Source: Bordetella parapertussis (GTDB taxonomy: Bacteria; Pseudomonadota; Gammaproteobacteria; Burkholderiales; Burkholderiaceae_E). Taken from it: a stretch of DNA of 64,000 nt. The stretch lies in assembly GCA_945883285.1 (NCBI GenBank), contig CAMCXH010000002.1, positions 2,898 through 66,897 on the forward strand, in the 5' to 3' direction. The position numbers were made by a program, and so were the translations under genes. Numbering within the stretch: position 1 is the stretch's first letter; every line of letters begins with the position of its first letter. Shown here piece after piece: positions 17,353 to 28,394 of this stretch. Below the pieces are notes generated by a model. The model worked only from the letters and a program-made list of their open reading frames with translations. It made no database searches and was not told the DNA's origin.

Positions 17353-17904
17353 TCAGGCGCTTGCCAGAATGTAATCGACGCAGGCGGGCAGGCTCGCAAA
17401 GACACCGTCGCAGGTTACACCGGTGCTGACCGAGTCGATGTTGTCCGACTCGACCATATAGGCACGACCAACGCCTGCAGCCTGTGCAGCCCCGATATCC
17501 GAGGGCTTGTCGCCGATCAGGATCGATTGCGCGAGCGACAGGCCGTGCTCGCGCGCTGCCGCAAGCAGCATGCCGGGGGCAGGTTTGCGGCATTCGCATT
17601 CGATGGACAGCGCCGGCACGCTGCCGGCGGGATGATGCGGGCAGTGATAGACCGCGGTGATCCTGACGCCCTCGCGCTCAAGGTGCCCGAGCATCTGCAC
17701 GGTCAGGGTCTCGAACTGCTCAGTCGAGTAGTAGCCGCGCGCAATGCCGGCCTGGTTGGTCACCACGATCAGCATGAAGCCTGCGGTCTGCAGGTCGCGC
17801 ATGGCTGCGATGGCGCCCGGGGCGAAAATGAATTCGTCCCAGCGATACACATAACCGCTGTCGAGGTTGATCACGCCATCGCGATCGAGAAAGGCTGCTT
17901 TCAC
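17353..17904 (-). CDS. gmhB: D-glycero-D-manno-heptose 1,7-bisphosphate phosphatase
   Basis: HAD motifs FLDRDGVIN, VVTNQAGIARG, CECRKPAPGM, GDKPSD. I prefer GTG 17904, which is preceded by GAGGAG 8 nt upstream; the track start 18006 adds 34 non-family residues. Confidence 0.88.
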   Translation of the reverse strand: MKAAFLDRDGVINLDSGYVYRWDEFIFAPGAIAAMRDLQTAGFMLIVVTNQAGIARGYYSTEQFETLTVQMLGHLEREGVRITAVYHCPHHPAGSVPALSIECECRKPAPGMLLAAAREHGLSLAQSILIGDKPSDIGAAQAAGVGRAYMVESDNIDSVSTGVTCDGVFASLPACVDYILASA

Positions 17905-18192
17905 CTGATCGACTCCTCTGCCCTGTCGCAACGCTGCGAACCGCCTGGTCAAGTCGATATTGACAGAAACATGGCTCTGACGAGGTTGGCCGACCGTCGC
18001 CAGCAATCGCTCGCAACCTGAGATGGCCGAAATAGGCGCGCTATTCCGAAGACTCTCTATCCGGCATCCGACGCAAACTCCGCGTGTCTCTCAAACTCCG
18101 TGGTCATCGGTTCGCTGACGACCCGGCATCTGTCCGAGTCGGGGCGCGGTGTCCCTGACCTAATTCGCGCAAGACGGAATGGAATCGATCTA

Positions 18193-18882
18193 ATGAACAG
18201 CAGACTGCCCGCGATCGCGACAAATCAGGCTTGGCCCTTCAGGGCGGGACTGATGAAGCAGGCGATTCAGATTTTCAAGAAGCCGGTGGACGTGCTCGAA
18301 ATCGGCACCTGGTATGGCGAAGGCTCGACCCAGATCTGGCTCGAGCATCTGATGGCAGGGTCGACTTTGACCCTGGTGGATCCGTGGAAGCCGTACTCGA
18401 GTGCCAGTGATCTGTCAGATGCCCAATATGACTATGCGGGCATGGATGCGCAGGTTTTGCAGGCCTATCTTTCGACGATTCTGTCGGTCTGCAAATTCGA
18501 AAACAACCAGCCCGGGAAGGTCGCCATCGACATCATCCGGGGTGAATCAGAGCGGGTGCTGTCGAGAATGCAGGACGGCCTGTTCGACTTCATTTATGTT
18601 GACGGCGATCACAAGTACGAGTCGGTCAAGCGGAACCTGATCGACGCGAAGCGTCTGGCCAAAAAAGAGTTCTCGCTGATTTGCGGCGACGACCTGGAGC
18701 GATTGCCGAGCCGGGAGTTGCTCGACATCGCGCACACCAATCGAACCCGCGACTATTTGCGTGATCCTCACAACTTTCACCCCGGCGTGATGTTGGCGGT
18801 TCACGAAGAGTTCGGTGAGGTTGGAATGGAGGAAGGCTTCTGGTGGGTTTTCTGCAAAGACGGAAAATTCTTCTGCGCCTGA
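18193..18882 (+). CDS. Class I SAM-dependent methyltransferase (Methyltransf_24-like)
   Basis: VLEIGTWYGEGS (motif I) and FDFIYVDGDHKYESV. Start moved to ATG 18193. Visibly lower GC than its surroundings. Confidence 0.8.
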   Translation: MNSRLPAIATNQAWPFRAGLMKQAIQIFKKPVDVLEIGTWYGEGSTQIWLEHLMAGSTLTLVDPWKPYSSASDLSDAQYDYAGMDAQVLQAYLSTILSVCKFENNQPGKVAIDIIRGESERVLSRMQDGLFDFIYVDGDHKYESVKRNLIDAKRLAKKEFSLICGDDLERLPSRELLDIAHTNRTRDYLRDPHNFHPGVMLAVHEEFGEVGMEEGFWWVFCKDGKFFCA

Positions 18883-18930
18883 TCGCAAGGCCATCCATTT
18901 GGTTCGCCCTGACCCATTTCGGAGTTGGTA

Positions 18931-19851
18931 ATGAAGTTCTCAGTGCTTACTGGCAATCACAACACTCACAACGGCATTGCCGACACCGTCATCTTCTTGC
19001 GCAACGCATTGCGGGACTGCGGTCAGGACTCACAAATCAATGTGTCTATCAGCGCTGACCGAGTCAACGTCATGATGGAACACTTTCCTGAGCCAGCCCA
19101 TCTCGAAGCGATCGAGAAGGGCTACAGGATGGGCGCCCGTTATGTCGTGATCGGCACCGAACCGATCGTCGGAGGCGTGTTCAATGGTGGCGTCGTCAGT
19201 AACCACTGGCATTACAGCAACGTTGAATACTGGCGCAAGCGTACCGAGGGATTCCTGCAGGCAGCGCGGTATTGTGAGGCGGTCTGGGTGCTCGCCGAGA
19301 GCATGATCGAGGGCTACCAAGCGCTGCTGCCCGACAAGCCGGTGCTCTTTTTGCCGCATGGCCATGTCGAGGGCTTTCGTCGATTCGAGCACCTGCCCGA
19401 TCATGCCAAGGACATCGATTTTTATGGGTCCGGCAGCCTGACCGATTATCGGCAGAGCATCGTGGCGGCTTTGGAAAAACGGGGTCACCGGGTTCGCTTC
19501 GACCAGCCGGGCTATGCCGACTATCTTCGTTTCGAGAATCTGTCCCGAAGCAAGGTTTGTCTCAACCTCCGACTCTCTCCCAATAATGTGATCCCATCGG
19601 TCTCACGCATGCATTTCAACATCGAGCATGCCAACTATGTCGCGCATGAGAAGTACGAACTGAAGTGCCCGCTCGACCCTTATGTCCTGCATCTGCCAGC
19701 CGACGAGTTTGTCGACTGGGCTGAAGCGGCGCTCGAGCAGCCGGACAAGCGCAAGCTTGCTGAAGGCATCCTTGATCGGTTTCGCAGCGAGATGCCGATG
19801 AGCCGCCTTTTGCCTCCGATCCTGGACGCGAGTCTGTCGCACCTGTCCTGA
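18931..19851 (+). CDS. Hypothetical protein, possibly glycosyltransferase-like
   Basis: 306 aa. GGAG sits 6 nt before ATG 18931. Only weak GT-B C-terminal-like features (DIDFYGSGSL...ALEKRGHRV). Function not assignable from sequence. Confidence 0.55.
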   Translation: MKFSVLTGNHNTHNGIADTVIFLRNALRDCGQDSQINVSISADRVNVMMEHFPEPAHLEAIEKGYRMGARYVVIGTEPIVGGVFNGGVVSNHWHYSNVEYWRKRTEGFLQAARYCEAVWVLAESMIEGYQALLPDKPVLFLPHGHVEGFRRFEHLPDHAKDIDFYGSGSLTDYRQSIVAALEKRGHRVRFDQPGYADYLRFENLSRSKVCLNLRLSPNNVIPSVSRMHFNIEHANYVAHEKYELKCPLDPYVLHLPADEFVDWAEAALEQPDKRKLAEGILDRFRSEMPMSRLLPPILDASLSHLS

Positions 19852-19853
19852 GC

Positions 19854-19872
19854 GGCGCTCAGACTGAGCGCC
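19854..19872. terminator. Palindromic hairpin between convergent genes (GGCGCTCAG-A-CTGAGCGCC)
   Basis: Perfect 9-bp arms starting 3 nt after the stop at 19851. There is no clear T-tract, so function as a terminator is uncertain. Confidence 0.35.
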
Positions 19873-19941
19873 ATCTCGCGCAGCACGATCGGTGATCGGT
19901 GATCTGGCCGGCCTTGCCGCCCCTCACTGCCGGGTCGTCGC

Positions 19942-21507
19942 TCAGTCCCCCAGCAACCTGCGCTTGAGCCGGATGCTCGCCATGTCCTCGACATTCCTGC
20001 GCTCCTGCACGCCGAACTTGCGCTCGACCAGCGCCAGGTAGTCGGCATTGCTGAAGTAGGTCTGCCAAGCCTCGTCGCGAAAACGCAGCACCTCGGCGGC
20101 GCTCACATGCTTTGTGGCCAGCGGCTGGCAGTCATACGACAGGAAGGCATAGCCGGCATAACTGTCGGGCAGCTGCCAGCCTTCCTTGATCGCACGGCGA
20201 TGGATCGGGCTGCCGGGCAGCGCCTGACAGGGATACATATTGGCCATCTCGGTGTTGAGCTCGAGCGCAAGCTCAAGCGTCTGCTGCATGGTCTGCAGGG
20301 TGTCTTCCGGAAAGCCGAAGATGTAGTTGCTGATCACGTTGATGTCGGTCGACCTCACCGTGTTGCAGATCTCGCGGATATTGACTTCCTGAAAGCTGCC
20401 CTTGGAGACTTCCTTGCGCACCAGCTGGCTGCCGGCTTCAATGCCCAGCGCCAGCCAGCCGATGCCGGCGCGCCGAAACAGATCGAGCGCGGCAGGCCGC
20501 ACGGTATCGACCCGCGCATACGCCCACATCCGCAGATTGAGCTCGCGACTGACAATCTGCTCGAGCAGCGGCTCGTAATAGCGCCGGTTCAGAAAAAACA
20601 TTTCATCGCTGATGCGCACCGTCTCCACGCCCATGCGCGCGAGCTTTTCGAGCTCGCCGGCGATGAAGGTCGGGCTCCAGAAGCGCATGCCGCGCGAGTT
20701 GGCCGCATGCACATCCTCGCCGTCGTCGACCCGGTTGACGATATTGATCATGCAGAAGTCGCAGCCGAAGTTGCAGCCGAGCGAGGTATAGATCGCGGCA
20801 AACGGCGTGCGCTTCGAATGATCAAAGCCGGCATGCCAGAAATGCGCGCGATACATATCCAGCGGTCGCTCGCGATAAGGCAGCAGGTCCCAGGCATAGC
20901 CCGGCAGATCGATGTCCATGCGCTCTTGCGGCACCACCGACTGCGGCGGGTTCATGAACATCACTGAGCTGCCCTGACCATCACGCTTCTTGTAGCCGAT
21001 GCCGGCGACCCGATGAACGTCGCTCTTGAGGTTGCCGCGCAGCAGATTGTGCAGGGCATAGACGCCCTCGTTCTGGAACACGATATCCACATAGGGCAGC
21101 GCCAGCACTTCGCGGGGCAGGGCGCTGGTGTGCGAGCCCACGAAGGCGATCGGAAAATCGGGAGCCTGCGCGCGGATCTCCTGCGCGAGCCGCGTGGCAC
21201 CGATCATGCTGGTGGTGCCCGAGTTCGGGTTCTGACCATAGATCACGAAGACCACCAGGCGGGGCTTGAGCGCCTCAACGCGTGCGACCGAATCGGCCAG
21301 CGACAGCTTTTCGGCATCGCAATCGAGGATGGCGCAGCCAAAGCCCTGGGCGCGGCAACTTTGTGCGAGCAGCAGTGCCCAGGTGGGCGGCTCGATCGCG
21401 GCGAAGGTCACTGCCAGATCCTGATAGGCCTGTGCCGATGAGCTCGGATTGATGAAGAGGACGTCGAGCGGGCGTTCGCCGGGTGCGGTGTGAGTGGTGC
21501 TGGTCAT
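19942..21507 (-). CDS. B12-binding domain radical SAM protein (class B radical SAM, methyltransferase-like)
   Basis: 521 aa. N-terminal cobalamin-binding-like Rossmann region (VLFINPSS...AILDCD...) and the radical SAM motif YTSLGCNFGCDFCM (CxxxCxxC). Confidence 0.88.
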   Translation of the reverse strand: MTSTTHTAPGERPLDVLFINPSSSAQAYQDLAVTFAAIEPPTWALLLAQSCRAQGFGCAILDCDAEKLSLADSVARVEALKPRLVVFVIYGQNPNSGTTSMIGATRLAQEIRAQAPDFPIAFVGSHTSALPREVLALPYVDIVFQNEGVYALHNLLRGNLKSDVHRVAGIGYKKRDGQGSSVMFMNPPQSVVPQERMDIDLPGYAWDLLPYRERPLDMYRAHFWHAGFDHSKRTPFAAIYTSLGCNFGCDFCMINIVNRVDDGEDVHAANSRGMRFWSPTFIAGELEKLARMGVETVRISDEMFFLNRRYYEPLLEQIVSRELNLRMWAYARVDTVRPAALDLFRRAGIGWLALGIEAGSQLVRKEVSKGSFQEVNIREICNTVRSTDINVISNYIFGFPEDTLQTMQQTLELALELNTEMANMYPCQALPGSPIHRRAIKEGWQLPDSYAGYAFLSYDCQPLATKHVSAAEVLRFRDEAWQTYFSNADYLALVERKFGVQERRNVEDMASIRLKRRLLGD

Positions 21508-21585
21508 GGTCGTTGCTGCCTTGGCGTAGGTGCTCGGGTGCTGGGGTCGGTCACGTGTCAGGCGTGAGGCGTCAGACGTCGCAGG

Positions 21586-22752
21586 TCAATGCACCGCCGG
21601 TGTCGCGATGCGACGCAGCAGACCGCCCACCAGCCCCTCCCAGGTATTGCCTTGCGGCGTGGGCACCGCTTCGGTGTGCGACAGCAGCTTGCTGGCGGCA
21701 AACCGGATCGACTCATCGCTGAAGTGATAGGGGTGCACACCCGCGAGATGGTCGGTGGTGATGTTGAAGTTGTTGGCAATTGGAATGCCCATGGCCAGGG
21801 CGCTGACCGCGCGCTCGTTGGTGCCGTTGCCGAAATTCGGGTCGAAATTCACCAGCCCTGCATAGTGCTGCACCAGATAACTGAAGGCATGGTTGTGATT
21901 CGGGTTGGGGGTGAGCAGGCGGAACGATTTTTCGTTGCCGACATACTGGCCCCAGTTTTCGCCGTAGATATCGACCGGCATGCCGCGCAGGGCCATCACC
22001 ACCTTCACGCGGCGATAGCGTTTCAGGCAGGAGTCCATCGCGCACAGGGCAGTCATGAAATCGGGCACGACCAGTTCAGCGACCGGCATGCTCATTGCAT
22101 CGGCGATCGCGCTCATGCCGTGAACGATGGTGGTGTGGCGCAGTGCCTCGCCGATCGTGCGAATCCGATCGCCATCGAAGCCCCAGACATTGTTGTCGCG
22201 CAGCGTGGCTTCAAACTCGTTGTGCAGGGCGCTGACCGCAAGCTCCTTGTTGGCCGAGGCCCAGATCATCAGTCGCTCGCCGTTTTCCTTCGGGCCAACC
22301 CGCCACGGGGCCGGATACGCCCCGGTCGGCATGAAGTGCACGCCCTTACCGATCAGACGACTGTCATTGCCCTCGAGGCTGGCGATATGCAGATTCGGGT
22401 TGGCGCGCCGGGCCTGAAGGTAGTCGCGACACGGCTTGACCCGAACGAAGTCGTAAGGCCAGGCATCGATGATGTAGGTAATGAAATGCGCCTGCGGGCC
22501 GATCATCTCCCAGATCGGCTTATTGTCGATCGTGATGCCCAGCGGCAGCGTGCCGGTGGTCATGATCAGCCTGAAATCCGGATCCTGCAGACTGCGCGGC
22601 AGCGCCTGCAGGCTGGCATCGTTGATGTTGATGATCTGCACATCGTAGCCGTTGGCATTGAGCGCATAGCTCAGGCTCTGCGCCATCATCTCGGTGCCGC
22701 CAAAGGGATGGTGGGCGGTCAATACCGCGGCCTTCGGATACATGCGGATCAT
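21586..22752 (-). CDS. Hypothetical protein, GT-B glycosyltransferase-like C-terminal half
   Basis: 388 aa. ...GLVNFDPNFGNGTNERAVSALAMGIPIANN resembles the GT1 donor-binding helix region. The N-terminal half is unassignable. Confidence 0.55.
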   Translation of the reverse strand: MIRMYPKAAVLTAHHPFGGTEMMAQSLSYALNANGYDVQIININDASLQALPRSLQDPDFRLIMTTGTLPLGITIDNKPIWEMIGPQAHFITYIIDAWPYDFVRVKPCRDYLQARRANPNLHIASLEGNDSRLIGKGVHFMPTGAYPAPWRVGPKENGERLMIWASANKELAVSALHNEFEATLRDNNVWGFDGDRIRTIGEALRHTTIVHGMSAIADAMSMPVAELVVPDFMTALCAMDSCLKRYRRVKVVMALRGMPVDIYGENWGQYVGNEKSFRLLTPNPNHNHAFSYLVQHYAGLVNFDPNFGNGTNERAVSALAMGIPIANNFNITTDHLAGVHPYHFSDESIRFAASKLLSHTEAVPTPQGNTWEGLVGGLLRRIATPAVH

Positions 22753-22762
22753 GTCAGCTCGC

Positions 22763-23701
22763 TCAGACGTTGCCGTGGACGGTGTTGCGGATCATGGTGA
22801 AACCCTTGACCAGTTCACTGATACCGGCAGACAGCGACATTTCGGGCATGAAGCCGGTCTGCTCGAGCTTGGCGTTCGAGACGACATAGTTGCGCTGATC
22901 CGGGTCCTTGCCGACCGGTGCGTCCAGGAACACGAAGTCGGGTACTTGCTTCTGGATGTGCTCGCACAGTTCGCGTTTGGAGACATTCGCTTCTGTCAGG
23001 CCGACGTTGTAGATCTGGCCGCGCATCGCATCGAAGTTGGCGATGCCGTGCATGAAGACCCGCGCGACATCGCGTACATGAATGTAGTTGCGCTTGAAGT
23101 CGCCCTCGAAGAGCACCACGAATCGGTCGTGCACCGCGCGATAGGTGAAGTCGTTGACCAGCAGGTCGATGCGCATGCGCGGCGACATGCCGAAGACCGT
23201 GGCGAGCCTGAAGCTGATCGCGTTGCCGCGCTGCATCAGGTGCTGCTCAACCGCGACTTTTTCGCGCGCGTAAATCGAGATCGGTCGCAGCGGTGACTCT
23301 TCGGTGCAGAAATTATTGGCGTCGCCGGTGCCGTAGGCGCTGTTGGTGGTCGGCATCAGGATGCGCTGATCCGCCGACATCTTCGAGAGCATCATCTCGA
23401 TTGCATCGTGATTGATGGTTTTTGCGCCCACCGGATCGGCATTGCACATCGGTGCGCCGACCAGTGCAGCCAGCGGGATCACGATGTCGGCTTCCTTGAG
23501 CAGCGGCGCGATCGTGCTTTCGATGCGGATGTCGCCCTTGACCACCTTGAAGTTCGGATGAAAGCAGACATGGTTCAGGCTGTTCTGCTTGAACATGAAA
23601 CTGTCGAGCACGGTCACCCGGTGGCCGGCTGCCAGCAGCTGCGGAACCAGGGTGGATCCGAGATAGCCGGCGCCGCCGGTTACGAGAATGCTAAAGGACA
23701 T
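22763..23701 (-). CDS. NAD(P)-dependent sugar epimerase/reductase (extended SDR)
   Basis: VTGGAGYLGS Rossmann motif, TTNSAYG, YAREK (YxxxK). It lacks the S/T-D/S-E triad of 4,6-dehydratases. Start moved to ATG 23701. Confidence 0.85.
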   Translation of the reverse strand: MSFSILVTGGAGYLGSTLVPQLLAAGHRVTVLDSFMFKQNSLNHVCFHPNFKVVKGDIRIESTIAPLLKEADIVIPLAALVGAPMCNADPVGAKTINHDAIEMMLSKMSADQRILMPTTNSAYGTGDANNFCTEESPLRPISIYAREKVAVEQHLMQRGNAISFRLATVFGMSPRMRIDLLVNDFTYRAVHDRFVVLFEGDFKRNYIHVRDVARVFMHGIANFDAMRGQIYNVGLTEANVSKRELCEHIQKQVPDFVFLDAPVGKDPDQRNYVVSNAKLEQTGFMPEMSLSAGISELVKGFTMIRNTVHGNV

Positions 23702-24312
23702 GTCGTGCTCCGAGGAGAAAGGGGTTCGTCGTCGAACATCGCTGCTTCGACGCATTCGCAAAGGGTGTGGGCCAGGACGATGTGAAGTTCCTGGATGGTG
23801 CTGGTGGCTTCGCCCGGCACGGCGATGCAGTAGTTGGCACGCAGCCTGGCGCTGCCGCCTCCCCGGCCCGCGAGCACCACGCTGGGCAGGCCCCGGCTGA
23901 TGCAATGGTCCAGCGCCTTCAGGATGTTGGCCGACTCACCCGAGGTGGTGATGCCTAGAAAAATATCTTTTTCGGTTGCCTTGCCGGCGAGCTGTCGCTC
24001 GAACACCCGATCAAAGCCATAGTCGTTGCCAATTGCCGTCAGGATCGACGAGTCAGTGGTCAGGGCCTCTGCCGGCAGCGGTGCGCGGTCGCGGGCAAGC
24101 TTGCTGACGAATTCGGCGGCCAGGTGCTGGGCATCGGCGGCAGAGCCGCCATTGCCGGCGATATAGAGGCGCCCACCGGCCTTGTAGCAGTTCACGATCA
24201 GTCGGGCTGCAGCATCGAAGGCCGCCATGATCTGCGGGTCGGCGAGCATCTGCCGCTTGGCCGCAAGTGAGGCTTCGACATTTCGCGAGAGACGTTCGAC
24301 TGGCGTACTCAT
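23680..24312 (-). CDS. gmhA: Sedoheptulose-7-phosphate isomerase (SIS domain)
   Basis: YIAGNGGSAADAQHLAAEFV...GITTSGES.N. 22-nt overlap with the SDR start. Confidence 0.88.
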   Translation of the reverse strand: MSTPVERLSRNVEASLAAKRQMLADPQIMAAFDAAARLIVNCYKAGGRLYIAGNGGSAADAQHLAAEFVSKLARDRAPLPAEALTTDSSILTAIGNDYGFDRVFERQLAGKATEKDIFLGITTSGESANILKALDHCISRGLPSVVLAGRGGGSARLRANYCIAVPGEATSTIQELHIVLAHTLCECVEAAMFDDEPLSPRSTTCPLAFS

Positions 24313-24315
24313 GGC

Positions 24316-25047
24316 TTATTCCTCGCAGGTTTGCGGCAGTACATCGGCGGCGCGGTGATAGTCGTGCGGCACGCCGATGTCGATGAATCGAGCGTCGACG
24401 GCAAGGCCATGGAAACGCTGTCCGGCTTCAAGCCAGACCGGAAAGAGATCGTTTTCGAGCGACAGCGCACCTTGCATCGGATCGGGTGCGCCTCGCAGAG
24501 CGCGCGGATGAACCAGATAGACGCCGCCATTGGCCAGGCGCCCAGGCGTCTGATCGTCGGCCTTCAGCGCACTGATGCGACCGTCGGCGTTCACCGTCAT
24601 GCCCATATAGCGGCCGGGCTCGGCGGCGACAAAGAGTGAGAAGCACCAGTCGGCATCGTGCGCGACGGCGAAGTCGGCCAGCGCAGGCAGCGCGACATCG
24701 AAATAGGTGTCGCCGTTGAGCAGCAGGAATCGCGCATCTGCAGCGAGCAGGCTGGCTGCCTGCAGCAGCGCGCCGCCGGTGCCAAGCGGCGTGGCTTCGA
24801 CGCTGTAGCGGATCGAGGCGCCGCGGTAGTGCGCACCAAAGTAATCGGAGATGGCTTCATGGCGATAGCCGACCGCCAGCACGAAGTCCCGGATGCCCTG
24901 GGCGATCCACTGGTCGAGCTGGTGCGAAAGAAATGGCCGGCCTGCAACCGGTGCCATCGGCTTGGGCAGATCGGGCACCGCGCTGCGCAGCCGGGTGCCC
25001 AGTCCACCGGCCAGCACGATCGCCGAAGTGATCGGGTGCTGGCTCAT
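24316..25047 (-). CDS. hddC: Sugar-1-phosphate nucleotidyltransferase (HddC-type heptose-1-P guanylyltransferase-like)
   Basis: AIVLAGGLGTRLRS...PKPMAPVAGRPFL. Co-located with the gmhA/hddA/gmhB set. Nucleotide specificity is inferred, not seen. Confidence 0.75.
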   Translation of the reverse strand: MSQHPITSAIVLAGGLGTRLRSAVPDLPKPMAPVAGRPFLSHQLDQWIAQGIRDFVLAVGYRHEAISDYFGAHYRGASIRYSVEATPLGTGGALLQAASLLAADARFLLLNGDTYFDVALPALADFAVAHDADWCFSLFVAAEPGRYMGMTVNADGRISALKADDQTPGRLANGGVYLVHPRALRGAPDPMQGALSLENDLFPVWLEAGQRFHGLAVDARFIDIGVPHDYHRAADVLPQTCEE

Positions 25048-26216
25048 GCAGCGTTCACGATGTCGCAGATCTCGTCGACTTCGCTGTCGCGCAGATCCGG
25101 AAAGTTGCCGATATAGAACCCGTAGAAGTGAACATGGTCGGTCTTCGGGAACTGCAGATGATGGTCTTTCGGCACGATGCCGCGCAGATAGGGCTGGCGC
25201 ACCTGATTGCCGCCGCCGGCACTGCCGCGACGAAACTCGACGCCGGCGGCGCGCAGGGTGGTCATCAGCCGCTGAACCAGTGCGTCGTCGGGGTGTTTCA
25301 GGATCAGGTTGAAGGCGTAGTTGCTGCTGCCCTCGAGCAGAAAGTCGGTCTGGAAGCGCGTGCTGTCGATGCGAGCCAGAAAGCGGTGAAGGTTCGCTGT
25401 GCGCCGGCTCACGTTTGCGTCCAGCCGCTTGAGCTGGCTGCGACCCATGATCGCGCCGATCTCGGTGTTGCGAACGTTATGCGCCGGATAGGCAAAGATG
25501 AAGTCCGGGTTCAGATCGGGATGCTCGGCGATAAAGCCGGCCTTCAGATCAGGGTCGGTCGATTCGCGCACCATGCCGTGCGAGCGCAGCATGCGAAGCT
25601 GCTGATAGACCTTGCTGTCGTTGGTGCACACCATGCCGCCCTCGATGGTCGACATGTGATGCGCGTAATAGAAGGAGAAGTTCGACATCCAGCCGATGCT
25701 GCCGAGCTTGACGCCATTGTGGGTCGCGCCATGCGACTCGCAGACATCCTCGATCAGCGGGATATTGCGGCGCTCGAGTTCGGCGATCAGCTCGTCGGTC
25801 AGGCCGTCAAAGCCCTGGACATGGGTCAGAAAGACCGCGCGCGTGCGGTCAGTAATCTTCGACAGGATCTCGCCGGGTGCCATCGCGAGCGTGCGCGGAT
25901 CGATATCGGCAAACACCGGTGTGAAGCCGTTTTGCAGGACGGTGGCCACATCCGACACCCAGGTCAGCGGCGGCACGATGACTTCGCCGCCGTCGGGGTG
26001 GGCAATGCGCAGCACCGCCATCGACAGCAGGTTGGCCGAGGCGCCCGAGTTGACGAAGACGCTGTGCTTGACGCCCAGCCACTGCGACCACTCGGCCTCG
26101 AAGGCAGCGCAGTTCGGCCCGTTGGTCAGGATCGGGTCATCTTGCTGCAGGTGGCGGATGATCGCATCGAGGTCTTCGCGCAGGATGTTGTTGCGCATCA
26201 ATGGAAATTTCATCAT
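25044..26216 (-). CDS. DegT/ColD-family PLP/PMP enzyme with the catalytic Lys position occupied by His (sugar 3-dehydratase type)
   Basis: 390 aa. NSGASANLL; the motif SFYYAHHMSTIEGG aligns to SFxxxKxxxxxEGG of aminotransferases with H in place of K, as in ColD/E1 dehydratases. Confidence 0.8.
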   Translation of the reverse strand: MMKFPLMRNNILREDLDAIIRHLQQDDPILTNGPNCAAFEAEWSQWLGVKHSVFVNSGASANLLSMAVLRIAHPDGGEVIVPPLTWVSDVATVLQNGFTPVFADIDPRTLAMAPGEILSKITDRTRAVFLTHVQGFDGLTDELIAELERRNIPLIEDVCESHGATHNGVKLGSIGWMSNFSFYYAHHMSTIEGGMVCTNDSKVYQQLRMLRSHGMVRESTDPDLKAGFIAEHPDLNPDFIFAYPAHNVRNTEIGAIMGRSQLKRLDANVSRRTANLHRFLARIDSTRFQTDFLLEGSSNYAFNLILKHPDDALVQRLMTTLRAAGVEFRRGSAGGGNQVRQPYLRGIVPKDHHLQFPKTDHVHFYGFYIGNFPDLRDSEVDEICDIVNAA

Positions 26217-26228
26217 GGCGGGCTGCGC

Positions 26229-26843
26229 TTACTTCTCGTTGTAGAAGTCGCCCCACTCCACGAGCAGGGTGCTGCGGCCGTCATCGCGAAGCAGTGCGCG
26301 CTGATAAGCCGGGAAAATGTCCTGCGGCTCGTCCAGGCGGATCACCTCGATCGAGCTGCACATTGCGCGCACCGCATCGGTGAAATCGCCGACATGCTGG
26401 TGTTGCGGATGCAGCGGGCGCTCGGCGCCGATGCTGGTGCGCACGATCGCCTTGGTTTTGAAGCCGTCGTTCGACATCACGCCGACCTTGTCGAGGTGAT
26501 TGATCAATTGGCTCATGGCGCACAGCAAAAAGTTCCAGCGCGGAAACAGGCTGACCGGGACCATGCCGGCCAGCGCCAGCCCGGTGGTCATGCCCATCTG
26601 CATTTCTTCGGCCACCGGCAGTTCGAGCAGGCGCGTCGGATCGATGTCCTTGAGCGTATTGCTCATTGCCGTGCCCGGAACGGCCACGGCCTGTCCGATG
26701 AAGAGCGTGCGCGGATCGGTGGCAAGGTATTCCATCGAGCGTTTGAGCTCGTCGAAATACTTCACCACACGCGGCTCAGAACTGGACGCGTTGTCCGGCG
26801 CCGGCGTGCGGGTATCGGGTCTGGTAGCGGTAGTAGTGGACAT
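26229..26843 (-). CDS. TPP-enzyme E1 beta-like (transketolase pyrimidine-binding domain) small subunit
   Basis: LFIGQAVAVPGTAMSNT...LPVAEEMQMGMTTGLALAG. The start is uncertain: TTG 26864, ATG 26843 or GTG 26768. The first two overlap the upstream gene by 68-89 nt. Confidence 0.7.
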   Translation of the reverse strand: MSTTTATRPDTRTPAPDNASSSEPRVVKYFDELKRSMEYLATDPRTLFIGQAVAVPGTAMSNTLKDIDPTRLLELPVAEEMQMGMTTGLALAGMVPVSLFPRWNFLLCAMSQLINHLDKVGVMSNDGFKTKAIVRTSIGAERPLHPQHQHVGDFTDAVRAMCSSIEVIRLDEPQDIFPAYQRALLRDDGRSTLLVEWGDFYNEK

Positions 26844-27402
26844 GACTGTCTCGTCGGTCGTCAAAGCTGAGGGTGGGCTGATTCCAGGCGTCGCGGGTGT
26901 CGGTGCAGACCGACTTGCCGTTGTCTTCGACGATGAAACGGATCGGCAGAAGATGGTTGCGGGCGTACTTCATCGATTCGTGGGCGATGCCGGTTTCGGC
27001 GGTCATCTCGCCCATGAAGCAATGGACCATCGCGTCTTCGCTGCGTCGCTTGATCGCCATGGCGGTACCGATCGCGATCGGCAGCACGCCACCGACAATC
27101 GCCGACGAATAGATGCGGTGCTCGGGAAAGCACAGCGAGATCGATCGTCCGGCCATGATCTCGTCAAGCACCTCCTGCGGCGGCACGCCCTTTAGCAGGC
27201 ACTGGTAGTGCGAGCGCCACGAGCAGAACAGCCAGTCGTTGGGCCGCACGTCCTTGAAGACGTCGATCATCTCGGCTTCATTGCCCGAGTAGAGGTGCAC
27301 CGGCGCGCGAATTTTTGCGTCGTTGAACAGTGCGGCCACCTTGTCTTCGAAGGCGATGAGGTCTTCCTGGGTCATCATGGTCATTCCTGTGAGGCTCATC
27401 AC
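26776..27402 (-). CDS. TPP-dependent E1 alpha-like small subunit
   Basis: VHLYSGNEA..., IVGGVLPIAIGTAMA, and a TPP motif variant GEMTAETG...(x)...IVEDNGKS. Only ~208 aa, versus my recollection of well over 300 aa for canonical E1 alpha. Confidence 0.75.
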   Translation of the reverse strand: MMSLTGMTMMTQEDLIAFEDKVAALFNDAKIRAPVHLYSGNEAEMIDVFKDVRPNDWLFCSWRSHYQCLLKGVPPQEVLDEIMAGRSISLCFPEHRIYSSAIVGGVLPIAIGTAMAIKRRSEDAMVHCFMGEMTAETGIAHESMKYARNHLLPIRFIVEDNGKSVCTDTRDAWNQPTLSFDDRRDSHVHYYRYQTRYPHAGAGQRVQF

Positions 27403-28394
27403 AGGCCGTTGGGTTGGTAGAGCATCACGCGGCTGCCGGACTCATCGAATCCGAAGGGCACATGAATCAGCTTGCTCAGTCGCTCGCGCACCCGGGTCTG
27501 ATGCTCCGGGCGCACGAAAAACAGCATGAATCCGCCGCCGCCCGCGCCCAGCACCTTGCCGCCGATAGCGCCTGCGTCGCGCGCGGCTTCATAGATCTGA
27601 TCGACTTCGGGGGTGGCGACCTTGTCGGACAGGGCCCGCTTGTGTTGCCACGACTCGTGCAGCAGATCGCCGAATTCTTCGATCGGACGGGTCGGGCTCT
27701 GCAGGATCTGGGTGGCCTCGTCGACCATGCCTTGCATGGCCTTGAGTTCGGTCTCGCGCTTGTTCAGGTTCGCAATCTTGGATTTGGCCACTTCGGCTGC
27801 GATGCGCGAGATGCCGGTAAAGCACAGCATCAGATGCTTCTGGAAGTCTTTCTGGCGCTGCTTTTTGAGGATCACCGGCGAGACGCTGAAATTGCCGCTG
27901 CGTTTGAATTCGATCCGGTTGAAGCCGCCATAGGCTGCGGCGATCTGGTCCTGCGAGCCGACGGCTTCGCCGATCACGTTCTGTTCGATATGCAGCGCAT
28001 CCTTGGAGAGCTGCTCTTTCGAGACATAGCTGCCCTTGAGCGCCGCGAGGGCGTGCAGCAAGCCGACGGTGAAGGACGAGCTCGAGCCCAGGCCGGAGCG
28101 GGCAGGCAGGTCGCCGTCGTGGTGGATCTCCATGCCCTTGTCGCACTTGGACCAGCCGAGAACCGCGCGCACGGAAGGGTGCTTGATCTCATCCCAGTGC
28201 TTGACGTTTTCGATCGCCGAGTAGACCACCCGGTGCTTGTGCTCGAAAAAGGGCGGGAGATGCCGGCAGGTGATGTAGCAGTATTTGTCGATCGTGGTCG
28301 AGAGCACTTCGCCGCCGTGCTGGGTATACCAGCCGGGATAGTCGGTCCCGCCGCCGAAAAAGGAGATCCGAAAGGGAGTGCGGGTGATGATCAT
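27399..28394 (-). CDS. hddA: GHMP-family sugar kinase (HddA-type D-glycero-D-manno-heptose 7-phosphate kinase-like)
   Basis: MIITRTPFRISFFGGGTDYP..., GHMP motif LPARSGLGSSSSF. Start moved to ATG 28394. Confidence 0.85.
   Translation of the reverse strand: MIITRTPFRISFFGGGTDYPGWYTQHGGEVLSTTIDKYCYITCRHLPPFFEHKHRVVYSAIENVKHWDEIKHPSVRAVLGWSKCDKGMEIHHDGDLPARSGLGSSSSFTVGLLHALAALKGSYVSKEQLSKDALHIEQNVIGEAVGSQDQIAAAYGGFNRIEFKRSGNFSVSPVILKKQRQKDFQKHLMLCFTGISRIAAEVAKSKIANLNKRETELKAMQGMVDEATQILQSPTRPIEEFGDLLHESWQHKRALSDKVATPEVDQIYEAARDAGAIGGKVLGAGGGGFMLFFVRPEHQTRVRERLSKLIHVPFGFDESGSRVMLYQPNGL

Follow-up and report, generated by a model that had tools for sequence, protein, structure and literature searches.

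Related pathways

Among the closest described relatives of the gene cluster discussed here are the capsular GDP-heptose pathways of Campylobacter jejuni (Cj1423-Cj1430; HS:5). The cluster occupies 11 kb (positions 17353-28394) of a 64-kb stretch of Bordetella parapertussis DNA, analysed at its full length and called the window below. It combines enzymes of GDP-heptose synthesis with a short-chain dehydrogenase/reductase (SDR), a ColD-type dehydratase, a two-subunit thiamine pyrophosphate (TPP) enzyme and a B12-domain radical S-adenosylmethionine (SAM) enzyme. Like the window, C. jejuni employs a Cj1427-type C4 dehydrogenase together with a C3 dehydratase dependent on pyridoxal or pyridoxamine phosphate (PLP or PMP). 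Cj1427-type enzymes hold a tightly bound NADH, which is recycled by alpha-ketoglutarate, and release a 4-keto heptose; in vitro, Cj1427 and the C3 dehydratase of C. jejuni HS:5 yield GDP-D-glycero-3-deoxy-4-keto-heptose, with a reported [M-H]- of 616.08 (PMC10680097). A first-pass annotation of the window had listed a ColD-type dehydratase among tailoring enzymes not known to occur together on a heptose; such a dehydratase on a GDP-heptose is in itself not new, as C. jejuni HS:5 has one (PMC10680097). The C. jejuni pathways end with epimerases and C4 reductases and lead to C7 heptoses, whereas the window contains no C4 reductase, and TPP and radical SAM enzymes instead.

The YerE, ErwE and MMAR_2332 pathways to yersiniose, erwiniose and caryophyllose share a different part of the logic. 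In these pathways, a TPP-bound acyl anion is added to a 3-deoxy-4-keto nucleotide sugar, which creates a tertiary alcohol and a carbon branch at C4. Erwiniose and caryophyllose require long alpha-keto acid donors, which come from an aldolase, and depend on the YerE-type enzymes ErwE and MMAR_2332 (Steitz et al. 2022, PMC9306805). Both sugars have thus been assigned to CDP-hexose and YerE-type enzymes (PMC9306805), contrary to the initial suggestion that the window product belongs to their chemical class and that no gene cluster is known for it. The nucleotide sugar in the yersiniose, erwiniose and caryophyllose pathways is CDP-3,6-dideoxy-4-keto-glucose from the Ddh route, and it is processed by a single-chain YerE-type thiamine diphosphate enzyme and a YerF reductase. 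In contrast, the window relies on GDP-heptose and on a split pair of reduced E1-like subunits (mini-E1; split transketolase-type in some relatives), and has neither the aldolase nor YerF.

AviB1/AviB2 and AlmDI/DII are two-subunit TPP enzymes that resemble pyruvate dehydrogenase E1; they are encoded among the tailoring genes of antibiotic deoxysugars and presumably deliver a pyruvate-derived C2 branch. In the window, the subunits are shortened to 200 and 179 aa, the E1-beta C-terminal domain is missing, and the metal-binding motif has GEM in place of GDG. Radical SAM enzymes that act on sugars include AprD4, HpnJ, which is involved in formation of the bacteriohopanetetrol (BHT) cyclitol ether, and the calditol synthase Cds. 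HpnJ and Cds have been proposed to form the cyclopentane rings of the BHT cyclitol ether and of calditol (PMC9092360). Unlike ring contraction or dehydration, the reaction proposed below would close a ring at the exocyclic ketone that a nucleotide sugar carries.

Caryose has been known since 1996, and Trinickia caryophylli is, to our knowledge, its only known producer. The lipopolysaccharide (LPS) of this organism contains a (1->7)-beta-caryose homopolymer, caryan (PMC9026286), beside (1->7)-alpha-caryophyllose. According to the title of Molinaro et al. 2000, caryan is O-acetylated. Caryophyllose is accounted for by a route in which YerE-type enzymes join CDP-3,6-dideoxy-4-keto-glucose and a long alpha-keto acid, with genetic support from Mycobacterium marinum (PMC9306805). 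For caryose, a 2022 review gives the origin and mode of formation as unknown (PMC9092360).

Proposed pathway and its fit to caryose

We infer that the cluster quite plausibly makes caryose, a carbocyclic sugar of nine carbons, or a close variant of it, with the chances for and against about equal. In the proposed pathway, GmhA, the kinase, GmhB and the nucleotidyltransferase would supply GDP-heptose, which would then be remodelled by a conserved core. The Cj1427-type SDR would oxidize C4 to give GDP-4-keto-heptose, with retention of the C6 hydroxyl (step 1). The ColD-type enzyme would strip the C3 hydroxyl to give GDP-3-deoxy-4-keto-heptose (step 2). The TPP pair would decarboxylate pyruvate and place the C2 unit on the C4 ketone, resulting in a 4-C-acetyl tertiary alcohol (step 3). 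Finally, the radical SAM enzyme would take a hydrogen from C7 and bond C7 to the branch carbonyl C8 (step 4). This redox-neutral isomerization would close a cyclopentane and give a caryose-type 4,8-cyclo-3,9-dideoxy-nonose. The first six steps from sedoheptulose 7-phosphate, up to and including step 2, are predicted from close homology to characterized enzymes; steps 3 and 4 we infer.

The connection to caryose is made by T. caryophylli itself. With the radical SAM protein of a Trinickia metagenome-assembled genome (MAG) as a query, an 89% identical match named Trinickia caryophylli was found (P0123). In two T. caryophylli assemblies (L088 and L089), an Acyl_transf_3 gene on the opposite strand is followed by genes for the radical SAM enzyme, the kinase, a GDP-fucose-synthase-like (Fcl-like) SDR, the two TPP subunits (TK_N and TK_C), the DegT-family protein, the nucleotidyltransferase, the Cj1427-like SDR, Wzm, Wzt and a conserved protein without Pfam match. 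The core is orthologous to that of the window and similarly ordered, with the radical SAM gene at the opposite end. Sequence identities between the two loci are 70% for the radical SAM enzyme, 69% for the kinase, 74% for the ColD-type enzyme, 50% for the nucleotidyltransferase and 76% for the SDR. The window thus has the six core functions side by side at 50% identity or more to T. caryophylli, with a TPP pair of the mini-E1 type. The transketolase-type pair, the Fcl-like enzyme, Wzm/Wzt, the acyltransferase and the protein after Wzt are, of the two loci, present only in that of T. caryophylli, whereas the mini-E1 pair, a dedicated GmhA and GmhB, a methyltransferase and two further proteins, unk388 and unk308, set the window apart. 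The Fcl-like SDR of T. caryophylli is of the 3,5-epimerase/4-reductase type (PDB 7ll6, E 1.6e-98; NCBIfam Fcl, 386 bits).

The elemental composition of caryose is compatible with the pathway. Oxidation of the heptose (C7H14O7) at C4 gives C7H12O7, and loss of the C3 hydroxyl C7H12O6, to which a hydroxyethyl-TPP equivalent adds C2H4O, for a total of C9H16O7. Caryose, a nonose (C9H18O9) lacking two oxygen atoms (dideoxy) and two hydrogen atoms (cyclo), is also C9H16O7. The 4-C-acetyl-3-deoxy-heptose and caryose are therefore isomers, and only the addition of C7-H across the C8 ketone is needed to convert one into the other, a redox-neutral step of the kind that hydrogen abstraction by a radical SAM enzyme can initiate. 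The stereochemistry fits as well. The prefixes of caryose, L-erythro-D-ido, imply that C2 and C6 are configured as in D-glycero-D-manno-heptose and that C5 is inverted, which is explained by the Fcl-like enzyme of T. caryophylli. Since caryophyllose is accounted for by the CDP-hexose and YerE-type route, the heptose cassette is left for caryose. Every structural feature of caryan maps to one T. caryophylli gene, and none is left over. Caryophyllose could not be mapped by hand onto a heptose skeleton, because a ring carbon would need to carry the long chain, and not a methyl group.

As the window lacks an Fcl-like 3,5-epimerase, the D configuration at C5 is predicted to be kept, which would make the product the 5-epimer of caryose. 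It would probably also be O-methylated by the Methyltransf_24 enzyme, and the GT-B protein unk388, possibly together with unk308, would transfer the sugar to an acceptor. The general prediction, made from the DNA alone, of a 3-deoxy, C4-branched higher sugar is supported. This sugar, initially thought to be undescribed, may be described already, given that the connection with T. caryophylli suggests caryose. The initial interpretation survives in its pathway logic, though not in its chemical-class analogy or in the view that no cluster is known.

Conservation of the cassette

The radical SAM protein was used to scan one genome per GTDB species. Relatives were found in at least 303 species genomes, and the best 80 loci were compared by tblastn, using the twelve window proteins and the T. 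caryophylli proteins as queries. Counts refer to the 68 loci in which the flanks span at least 8 kb. The full core (radical SAM enzyme, kinase, TPP pair, ColD-type enzyme, nucleotidyltransferase and Cj1427-type SDR) was present in 58 of the 68. The survey of recurrence that had been suggested along with the first interpretation thus shows that the combination of genes is far from a chance association. The six core functions are a conserved cassette across several phyla, and their proteins typically share 50-88% identity with the window counterparts.

The 80 best loci come from Burkholderiales (Piscinibacter, Sphaerotilus, Rubrivivax), many Nitrospira, Methylomonas, Methylobacter, Methylotuvimicrobium, Accumulibacter, Chlorobiaceae, a Spirulina, Verrucomicrobiota, a Pseudomonas and a Trinickia MAG. 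Full cassettes are found in loci of Nitrospirota, Chlorobiota, and methanotrophic and other Proteobacteria; versions in one cyanobacterium and one Verrucomicrobiota MAG are partial or divergent. Cultured carriers of the cassette include Piscinibacter defluvii SH-1, Methylobacter tundripaludum, Methylomonas rivi and Pseudomonas sp. RHF3.3-3. The TPP pair is of the mini-E1 type in 32 of the 68 loci and of the split transketolase type in another 32. Both types share one position in the cassette, and the pair lies between tailoring genes in 64 loci. An Fcl-like SDR is encoded in 47 loci, GmhA in 32, and Wzm/Wzt in about 17. The accessory genes of the window are rarer (unk308 in 10, unk388 in 6 and Methyltransf_24 in 5 of the 68).

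In an uncultured proteobacterium (L086:9923-16574), a gene for a 67% identical radical SAM enzyme is followed by TK_N, TK_C and a transaldolase/fructose-6-phosphate aldolase gene, and by genes for an oxidoreductase of the GFO/IDH/MocA family and a regular aminotransferase of the DegT family. The radical SAM enzyme and the TPP pair seem to be the tightest functional unit of the cassette, and may also be used in another pathway.

A search of the locus against plasmids by megablast gave a single match, to an SDR gene of Azospirillum. This match belongs to a different cluster, since the radical SAM enzyme is absent there and the partner proteins are only 28-39% identical. The region (L001; Azospirillum lipoferum 4B plasmid AZO_p6, 43097-49595) encodes a Cj1427-like SDR (65% identity), full-length E1 alpha and beta subunits, a DegT-family protein (32%) and a 424-aa protein with matches to HddC as well as GmhB, and is adjoined by GT41/TPR genes. 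The region may represent a heptose C2-branching pathway ending before the radical SAM step.

Predicted GDP-heptose supply and first tailoring steps

Homology was assessed by Pfam, NCBIfam and PDB searches with the window proteins, which upheld every domain call of the first-pass annotation. The four types of enzyme required for GDP-heptose are encoded together, and heptose enzymes are the top family or PDB matches for each, in line with the self-contained route that had been recognized from the start. GmhA (23680-24312, minus strand), a predicted sedoheptulose-7-phosphate isomerase, has an SIS_2 domain. The HddA-like D-glycero-D-manno-heptose-7-phosphate kinase of the GHMP type (27399-28394, minus strand; core) has the heptose-7-phosphate kinases 4n3o, 3k85 and 4usk as its top PDB matches (E around 1e-40). 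Its open reading frame (ORF) reaches 28478, and the start is most likely at 28394, where the sequence begins with MIITRTPF as in homologues, including the T. caryophylli kinase. GmhB, the HAD-IIIA type heptose 1,7-bisphosphate 7-phosphatase (17353-17904, minus strand), carries the FLDRDGVIN motif and scores 181 bits against NF006506 (cutoff 178) and 172 bits against TIGR00213 (cutoff 149.6). It is the only one of the four enzymes above an NCBIfam equivalog cutoff. Its ORF extends to 18006, with a probable GTG start at 17904. The HddC-like heptose-1-phosphate guanylyltransferase (24316-25047, minus strand; core) is closest in the PDB to 5xhw/6jq8, deposited as a '6-deoxy-D-mannoheptose pathway protein' (E 2e-29), and then to GDP-mannose pyrophosphorylases. 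The likeness to HddA and HddC, and the GDP-specific partners Cj1427, ColD and Fcl, suggest that the kinase provides the alpha-1,7-bisphosphate and that the transferase uses GTP.

The extended SDR (22763-23701, minus strand; core) aligns along its entire length (residues 1-305) with PDB 6VO6/6VO8 at 55% identity (E 3.5e-110), and all other structures follow only at 1e-20. Its PTTNSAYG motif is kept in 73 of 75 homologues. We take 6VO6/6VO8 to be Cj1427 of C. jejuni, which acts as a C4 dehydrogenase on GDP-D-glycero-α-D-manno-heptose. The SDR is thus predicted to be a GDP-heptose C4 dehydrogenase of the Cj1427 type, and assignments as a 4,6-dehydratase or GalE were rejected in view of the 6VO6/6VO8 match. 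The initial interpretation had noted that no canonical 4,6-dehydratase signature is present, which left a gap over the source of the 4-keto group; this gap is closed by the homology.

The DegT-family protein (25044-26216, minus strand; core) is most similar in the PDB to ColD/WbdK (2gms, E 1e-46), which agrees with its earlier assignment as a His-for-Lys 3-dehydratase. In the alignment of its segment FSFYYAHHMSTIEGG with ColD FSSFYSHHIATMEGG, the two His residues fall on HH of ColD, the first of which is replaced by N in the 3b8x variant. The DegT fold with His in place of the Lys that forms the internal aldimine is what distinguishes 3-dehydratases of the ColD/E1 type, and because His is present at this position, the protein is expected to be a PMP-dependent C3 dehydratase and not an aminotransferase. 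The FSFYYAHHM motif is kept in 58-63 of 79 homologues.

The radical SAM enzyme

The 521-aa product of the core gene at 19942-21507 (minus strand) consists of an N-terminal B12-binding-type domain (PF02310, 3.7e-15) and a radical SAM domain (PF04055, 8.5e-17), as the first-pass annotation had recognized. It contains the sequence CNFGCDFC, and the cysteines of the CxxxCxxC motif are invariant among homologues. A B12-binding domain joined to a CxxxCxxC core is also what marks class B radical SAM methyltransferases. The protein shows unusually high conservation, with at least 120 database clusters that are 71% or more identical to it. Its top NCBIfam match is HpnJ, with 99 bits, far under the cutoff of 578, and the AprD4 family scores 57 bits against a cutoff of 500. 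Membership in a characterized methyltransferase family is not indicated by NCBIfam, where all methylase models score far under their cutoffs. The nearest solved structure is AprD4, a non-methylating enzyme (1.9e-12), while TsrM (2e-3) and TokK (0.04) are near noise, which speaks against the GenK-type C-methylase reading given to the enzyme at first.

Methylation is nevertheless central to the alternative that has to be taken most seriously. If the route to the C4 branch were the same and the radical SAM enzyme were a cobalamin-dependent C-methyltransferase of the GenK/Fom3 type, the product would be an acyclic, undescribed 3-deoxy-4-C-acetyl (or hydroxyethyl) heptose with C- and O-methylation. 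Most characterized enzymes with a B12-binding and a radical SAM domain do methylate, the PhpK-, HpnR- and TsrM-type families are among the weak NCBIfam matches, and a class I methyltransferase is also encoded in the locus. Against this, there are the low methylase scores and the much better match to AprD4. Moreover, no methyl-branched heptose has been reported in the LPS of T. caryophylli, although the cassette lies in an O-antigen locus there, and the caryose that has been reported fits without any methylation. We consider the methylation route possible but unlikely, and prefer ring closure to caryose or a close variant.

The two-subunit TPP enzyme

The TPP enzyme of the window is a split E1-type pair, as originally predicted. 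The 200-aa E1-alpha-like subunit (26776-27378, minus strand; core), which contains the diphosphate-binding domain, matches Pfam E1_dh (3.7e-18) from position 6 to 178 of 300, and the NCBIfam pyruvate dehydrogenase E1-alpha model with 101 bits, far under cutoff. The 179-aa E1-beta-like subunit (26229-26768, minus strand; core) is limited to the pyrimidine-binding domain (Transket_pyr, 1.4e-10); its gene was called from a metagenome contig of the European Nucleotide Archive (ENA; L002). A PVAEE motif, presumably harbouring the catalytic Glu of E1-beta, is present in 41 of 44 homologues. The pair does not qualify as a pyruvate dehydrogenase E1, as it has no alpha subunit of about 320 aa, no Transketolase_C domain in beta and no GDG...NN motif. 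Without the C-terminal domain of E1-beta, it may rank among the most compact TPP enzymes of the E1 type. The mini-E1 pair is only distantly related to the transketolase-type pair (23-27% identity around the TPP motif), and the mini E1-alpha and T. caryophylli subunits align across this motif with GEM...EDNG and GDG...DDN, respectively. A logic as in phosphonate pathways, with a split decarboxylase and a Fom3-like radical SAM enzyme, was also considered, and rejected, since a PEP mutase is absent and the TPP subunits are members of the E1/transketolase families.

If the TPP pair were a transketolase-like supplier of sedoheptulose 7-phosphate, there would be no branching. The product would be a C7 3-deoxy heptose that only the radical SAM enzyme modifies further, for example by an AprD4-like dehydration of the C6-C7 diol. 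The pair is indeed of the transketolase type in half of the loci (with NCBIfam transketolase scores of 206 and 154 bits), a transaldolase adjoins it in the uncultured proteobacterium (L086), where heptose genes are absent within 10 kb, and the solved structure nearest to the radical SAM enzyme is that of a diol dehydratase, AprD4. However, an E1-type pair is used in the remaining half, to which the window belongs, and the E1 family, as far as is known, decarboxylates 2-oxo acids and makes no ketose phosphates. The position of the pair between tailoring genes in 64 of the 68 loci, and the supply of sedoheptulose 7-phosphate by the housekeeping transketolase, are further arguments against such a role. 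A C7 product would also explain neither of the O-chain sugars of T. caryophylli. This interpretation is therefore improbable, and C2 transfer on the way to a caryose-type sugar remains preferred.

Weighing the proposal

Several observations weigh against the route to a caryose-type sugar. Three of the four GDP-heptose enzymes score under their equivalog cutoffs: GmhA with 181 bits (PRK13936) and 162 bits (TIGR00441), the kinase with 161 bits against the far higher HddA cutoff of 600, and the nucleotidyltransferase with 160 bits against the HddC cutoff of 300. The PDB entry 6VO6 carries no more specific name than 'putative sugar-nucleotide epimerase/dehydratase', and its identity with Cj1427 was reportedly established by Huddleston et al. 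in 2020. The metal-binding motif of the mini E1-alpha subunit is GEM...EDNG and not the canonical GDG...NN, and the T. caryophylli pair resembles transketolase and 1-deoxyxylulose-5-phosphate synthase (DXS) more than E1 (206 and 154 bits, as above). Pyruvate as the donor and the C4 ketone as the acceptor of the TPP reaction are presumed from analogy. We know of no characterized enzyme of this kind that adds a radical to a ketone. An Fcl-like 3,5-epimerase/reductase has no homologue in the 64-kb window, and in the uncultured proteobacterium (L086) there are no heptose genes within 10 kb of the radical SAM gene and the TPP pair. Finally, a scan of the larger ORFs of the window revealed no Wzm/Wzt or other obvious polysaccharide-export genes, and no clue to the acceptor was found in the window.

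The lack of export and polymerase genes in the window, and the occurrence of the cassette in many bacteria whose glycans were never analysed, could also mean that the cassette makes another, undetected glycan component or small molecule and that the fit to caryose is coincidental, but this is quite improbable given how many features the T. caryophylli genes match: nine carbons, 3-deoxy, 9-deoxy, tertiary C4-OH, C8-OH, C2 and C6 retained, C5 inverted, O-acetylation, and a homopolymer exported by Wzm/Wzt, with no gene left over.

The most specific form of the caryose proposal combines several claims, namely that the cassette is the caryose pathway, in which a radical SAM enzyme makes the C7-C8 bond on a nucleotide sugar, that carbocyclic nonoses are common in the surface glycans of environmental bacteria and have been overlooked, and that the window makes a 5-epi, O-methylated version, which new glycosyltransferases attach. 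As a whole, it falls a little short of an even chance. The question of how caryose is made, about thirty years old, is narrowed to a few genes and a single series of reactions that can be tested. If the proposal is true, closure of a carbocycle on a GDP-sugar would be a new type of radical SAM reaction, and the 200 + 179 aa pair would define a minimal TPP carboligase. A function would then also be assigned to a cassette that hundreds of environmental species carry, among them nitrifiers (Nitrospira) and methanotrophs, whose surface glycans have hardly been studied. Should the ring closure be wrong, the cassette would still represent an uncharacterized and widespread pathway to a branched higher sugar. 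The locus is an uncharacterized, widely distributed variant of nucleotide-sugar tailoring.

Locus organization and accessory genes

All twelve genes of the cluster originally reported between 17353 and 28394 are intact ORFs, distributed over both strands. Nine of them run head to tail on the minus strand from 28394 to 19942, in the order kinase, mini E1-alpha, mini E1-beta, ColD-type dehydratase, nucleotidyltransferase, GmhA, SDR, unk388 and radical SAM enzyme. The methyltransferase and unk308 genes are on the plus strand and separate from this run, and the GmhB gene, again on the minus strand, lies beyond them. The cluster forms a chromosomal island flanked by azlCD and the chromate transporter gene chrA. 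Export, polymerase and flagellar genes were sought in the rest of the window, and only housekeeping genes were found, among them argC, glnE, an ilvE-type aminotransferase gene, tldD and the DAHP synthase and urease genes. The ENA metagenome contig is essentially the same as the window, with 99-100% identical proteins, and the radical SAM protein of a Burkholderiales MAG from Lake Pavin (L008) is 98% identical to that of the window.

The cassettes of Nitrospira and Sulfuricaulis (L003/L004 and L006/L007) are located in larger polysaccharide loci and have NusG-family and helix-turn-helix (HTH) regulator genes upstream. This arrangement hints at a dedicated antitermination control. In T. caryophylli, the protein encoded directly after Wzt (L088:20424-21527) has no Pfam or NCBIfam match. 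Homologues are present in six other loci (L042, L062, L067-L069 and L082), with the same position directly after Wzt in several cassette loci, and none occurs in the window. It is a candidate for a polymerizing transferase or a chain terminator of the homopolymer.

The accessory genes unk388, unk308 and Methyltransf_24 are shared by the close relatives of the window. The class I SAM methyltransferase (18100-18882, plus strand; PF13578, 4e-11) has no NCBIfam match, and is probably an O-methyltransferase. The 388-aa unk388 (21586-22752, minus strand) has no sequence or profile match in Pfam, NCBIfam or the PDB. Its AlphaFold2 model (pLDDT 90.3, pTM 0.88) was related by Foldseek, with probability 1.0, to the GT-B enzymes SenB, TreT, GtfB and GT4, at TM scores up to 0.5-0.6 and about 10% identity. 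It is thus a putative divergent glycosyltransferase of the GT-B fold. The family comprises only 91 clusters worldwide, and its few named sources all belong to the Burkholderiales.

The 306-aa unk308 (18931-19851, plus strand) also lacks matches in Pfam, NCBIfam and the PDB, and a single-sequence AlphaFold model was unusable (pLDDT 39). A direct sequence and profile comparison of unk388 and unk308 gave no match. The unk308 family, for which there is no Pfam model, has 284 representative clusters worldwide. In five proteins of 676-1660 aa (P0329, P0335, P0337, P0341 and P0375), its domain is fused to Glyco_trans_1_2, GT2 and TPR domains, so that unk308 looks like an undescribed, glycosyltransferase-associated domain of glycan assembly. 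The vague glycosyltransferase likeness that both proteins were credited with is therefore borne out at the level of the fold for unk388, and for unk308 only through these fusions.

In five sister loci (L010, L011, L013, L016 and L018), an Fcl-like SDR is encoded beside or near the unk308 homologue, where the window has the methyltransferase. The GC content of the stretch with the methyltransferase and unk308 genes (18000-20000) is 57%, compared with about 64% in the flanks. Together with the gene content of the sister loci, this suggests recent swapping of accessory modules.

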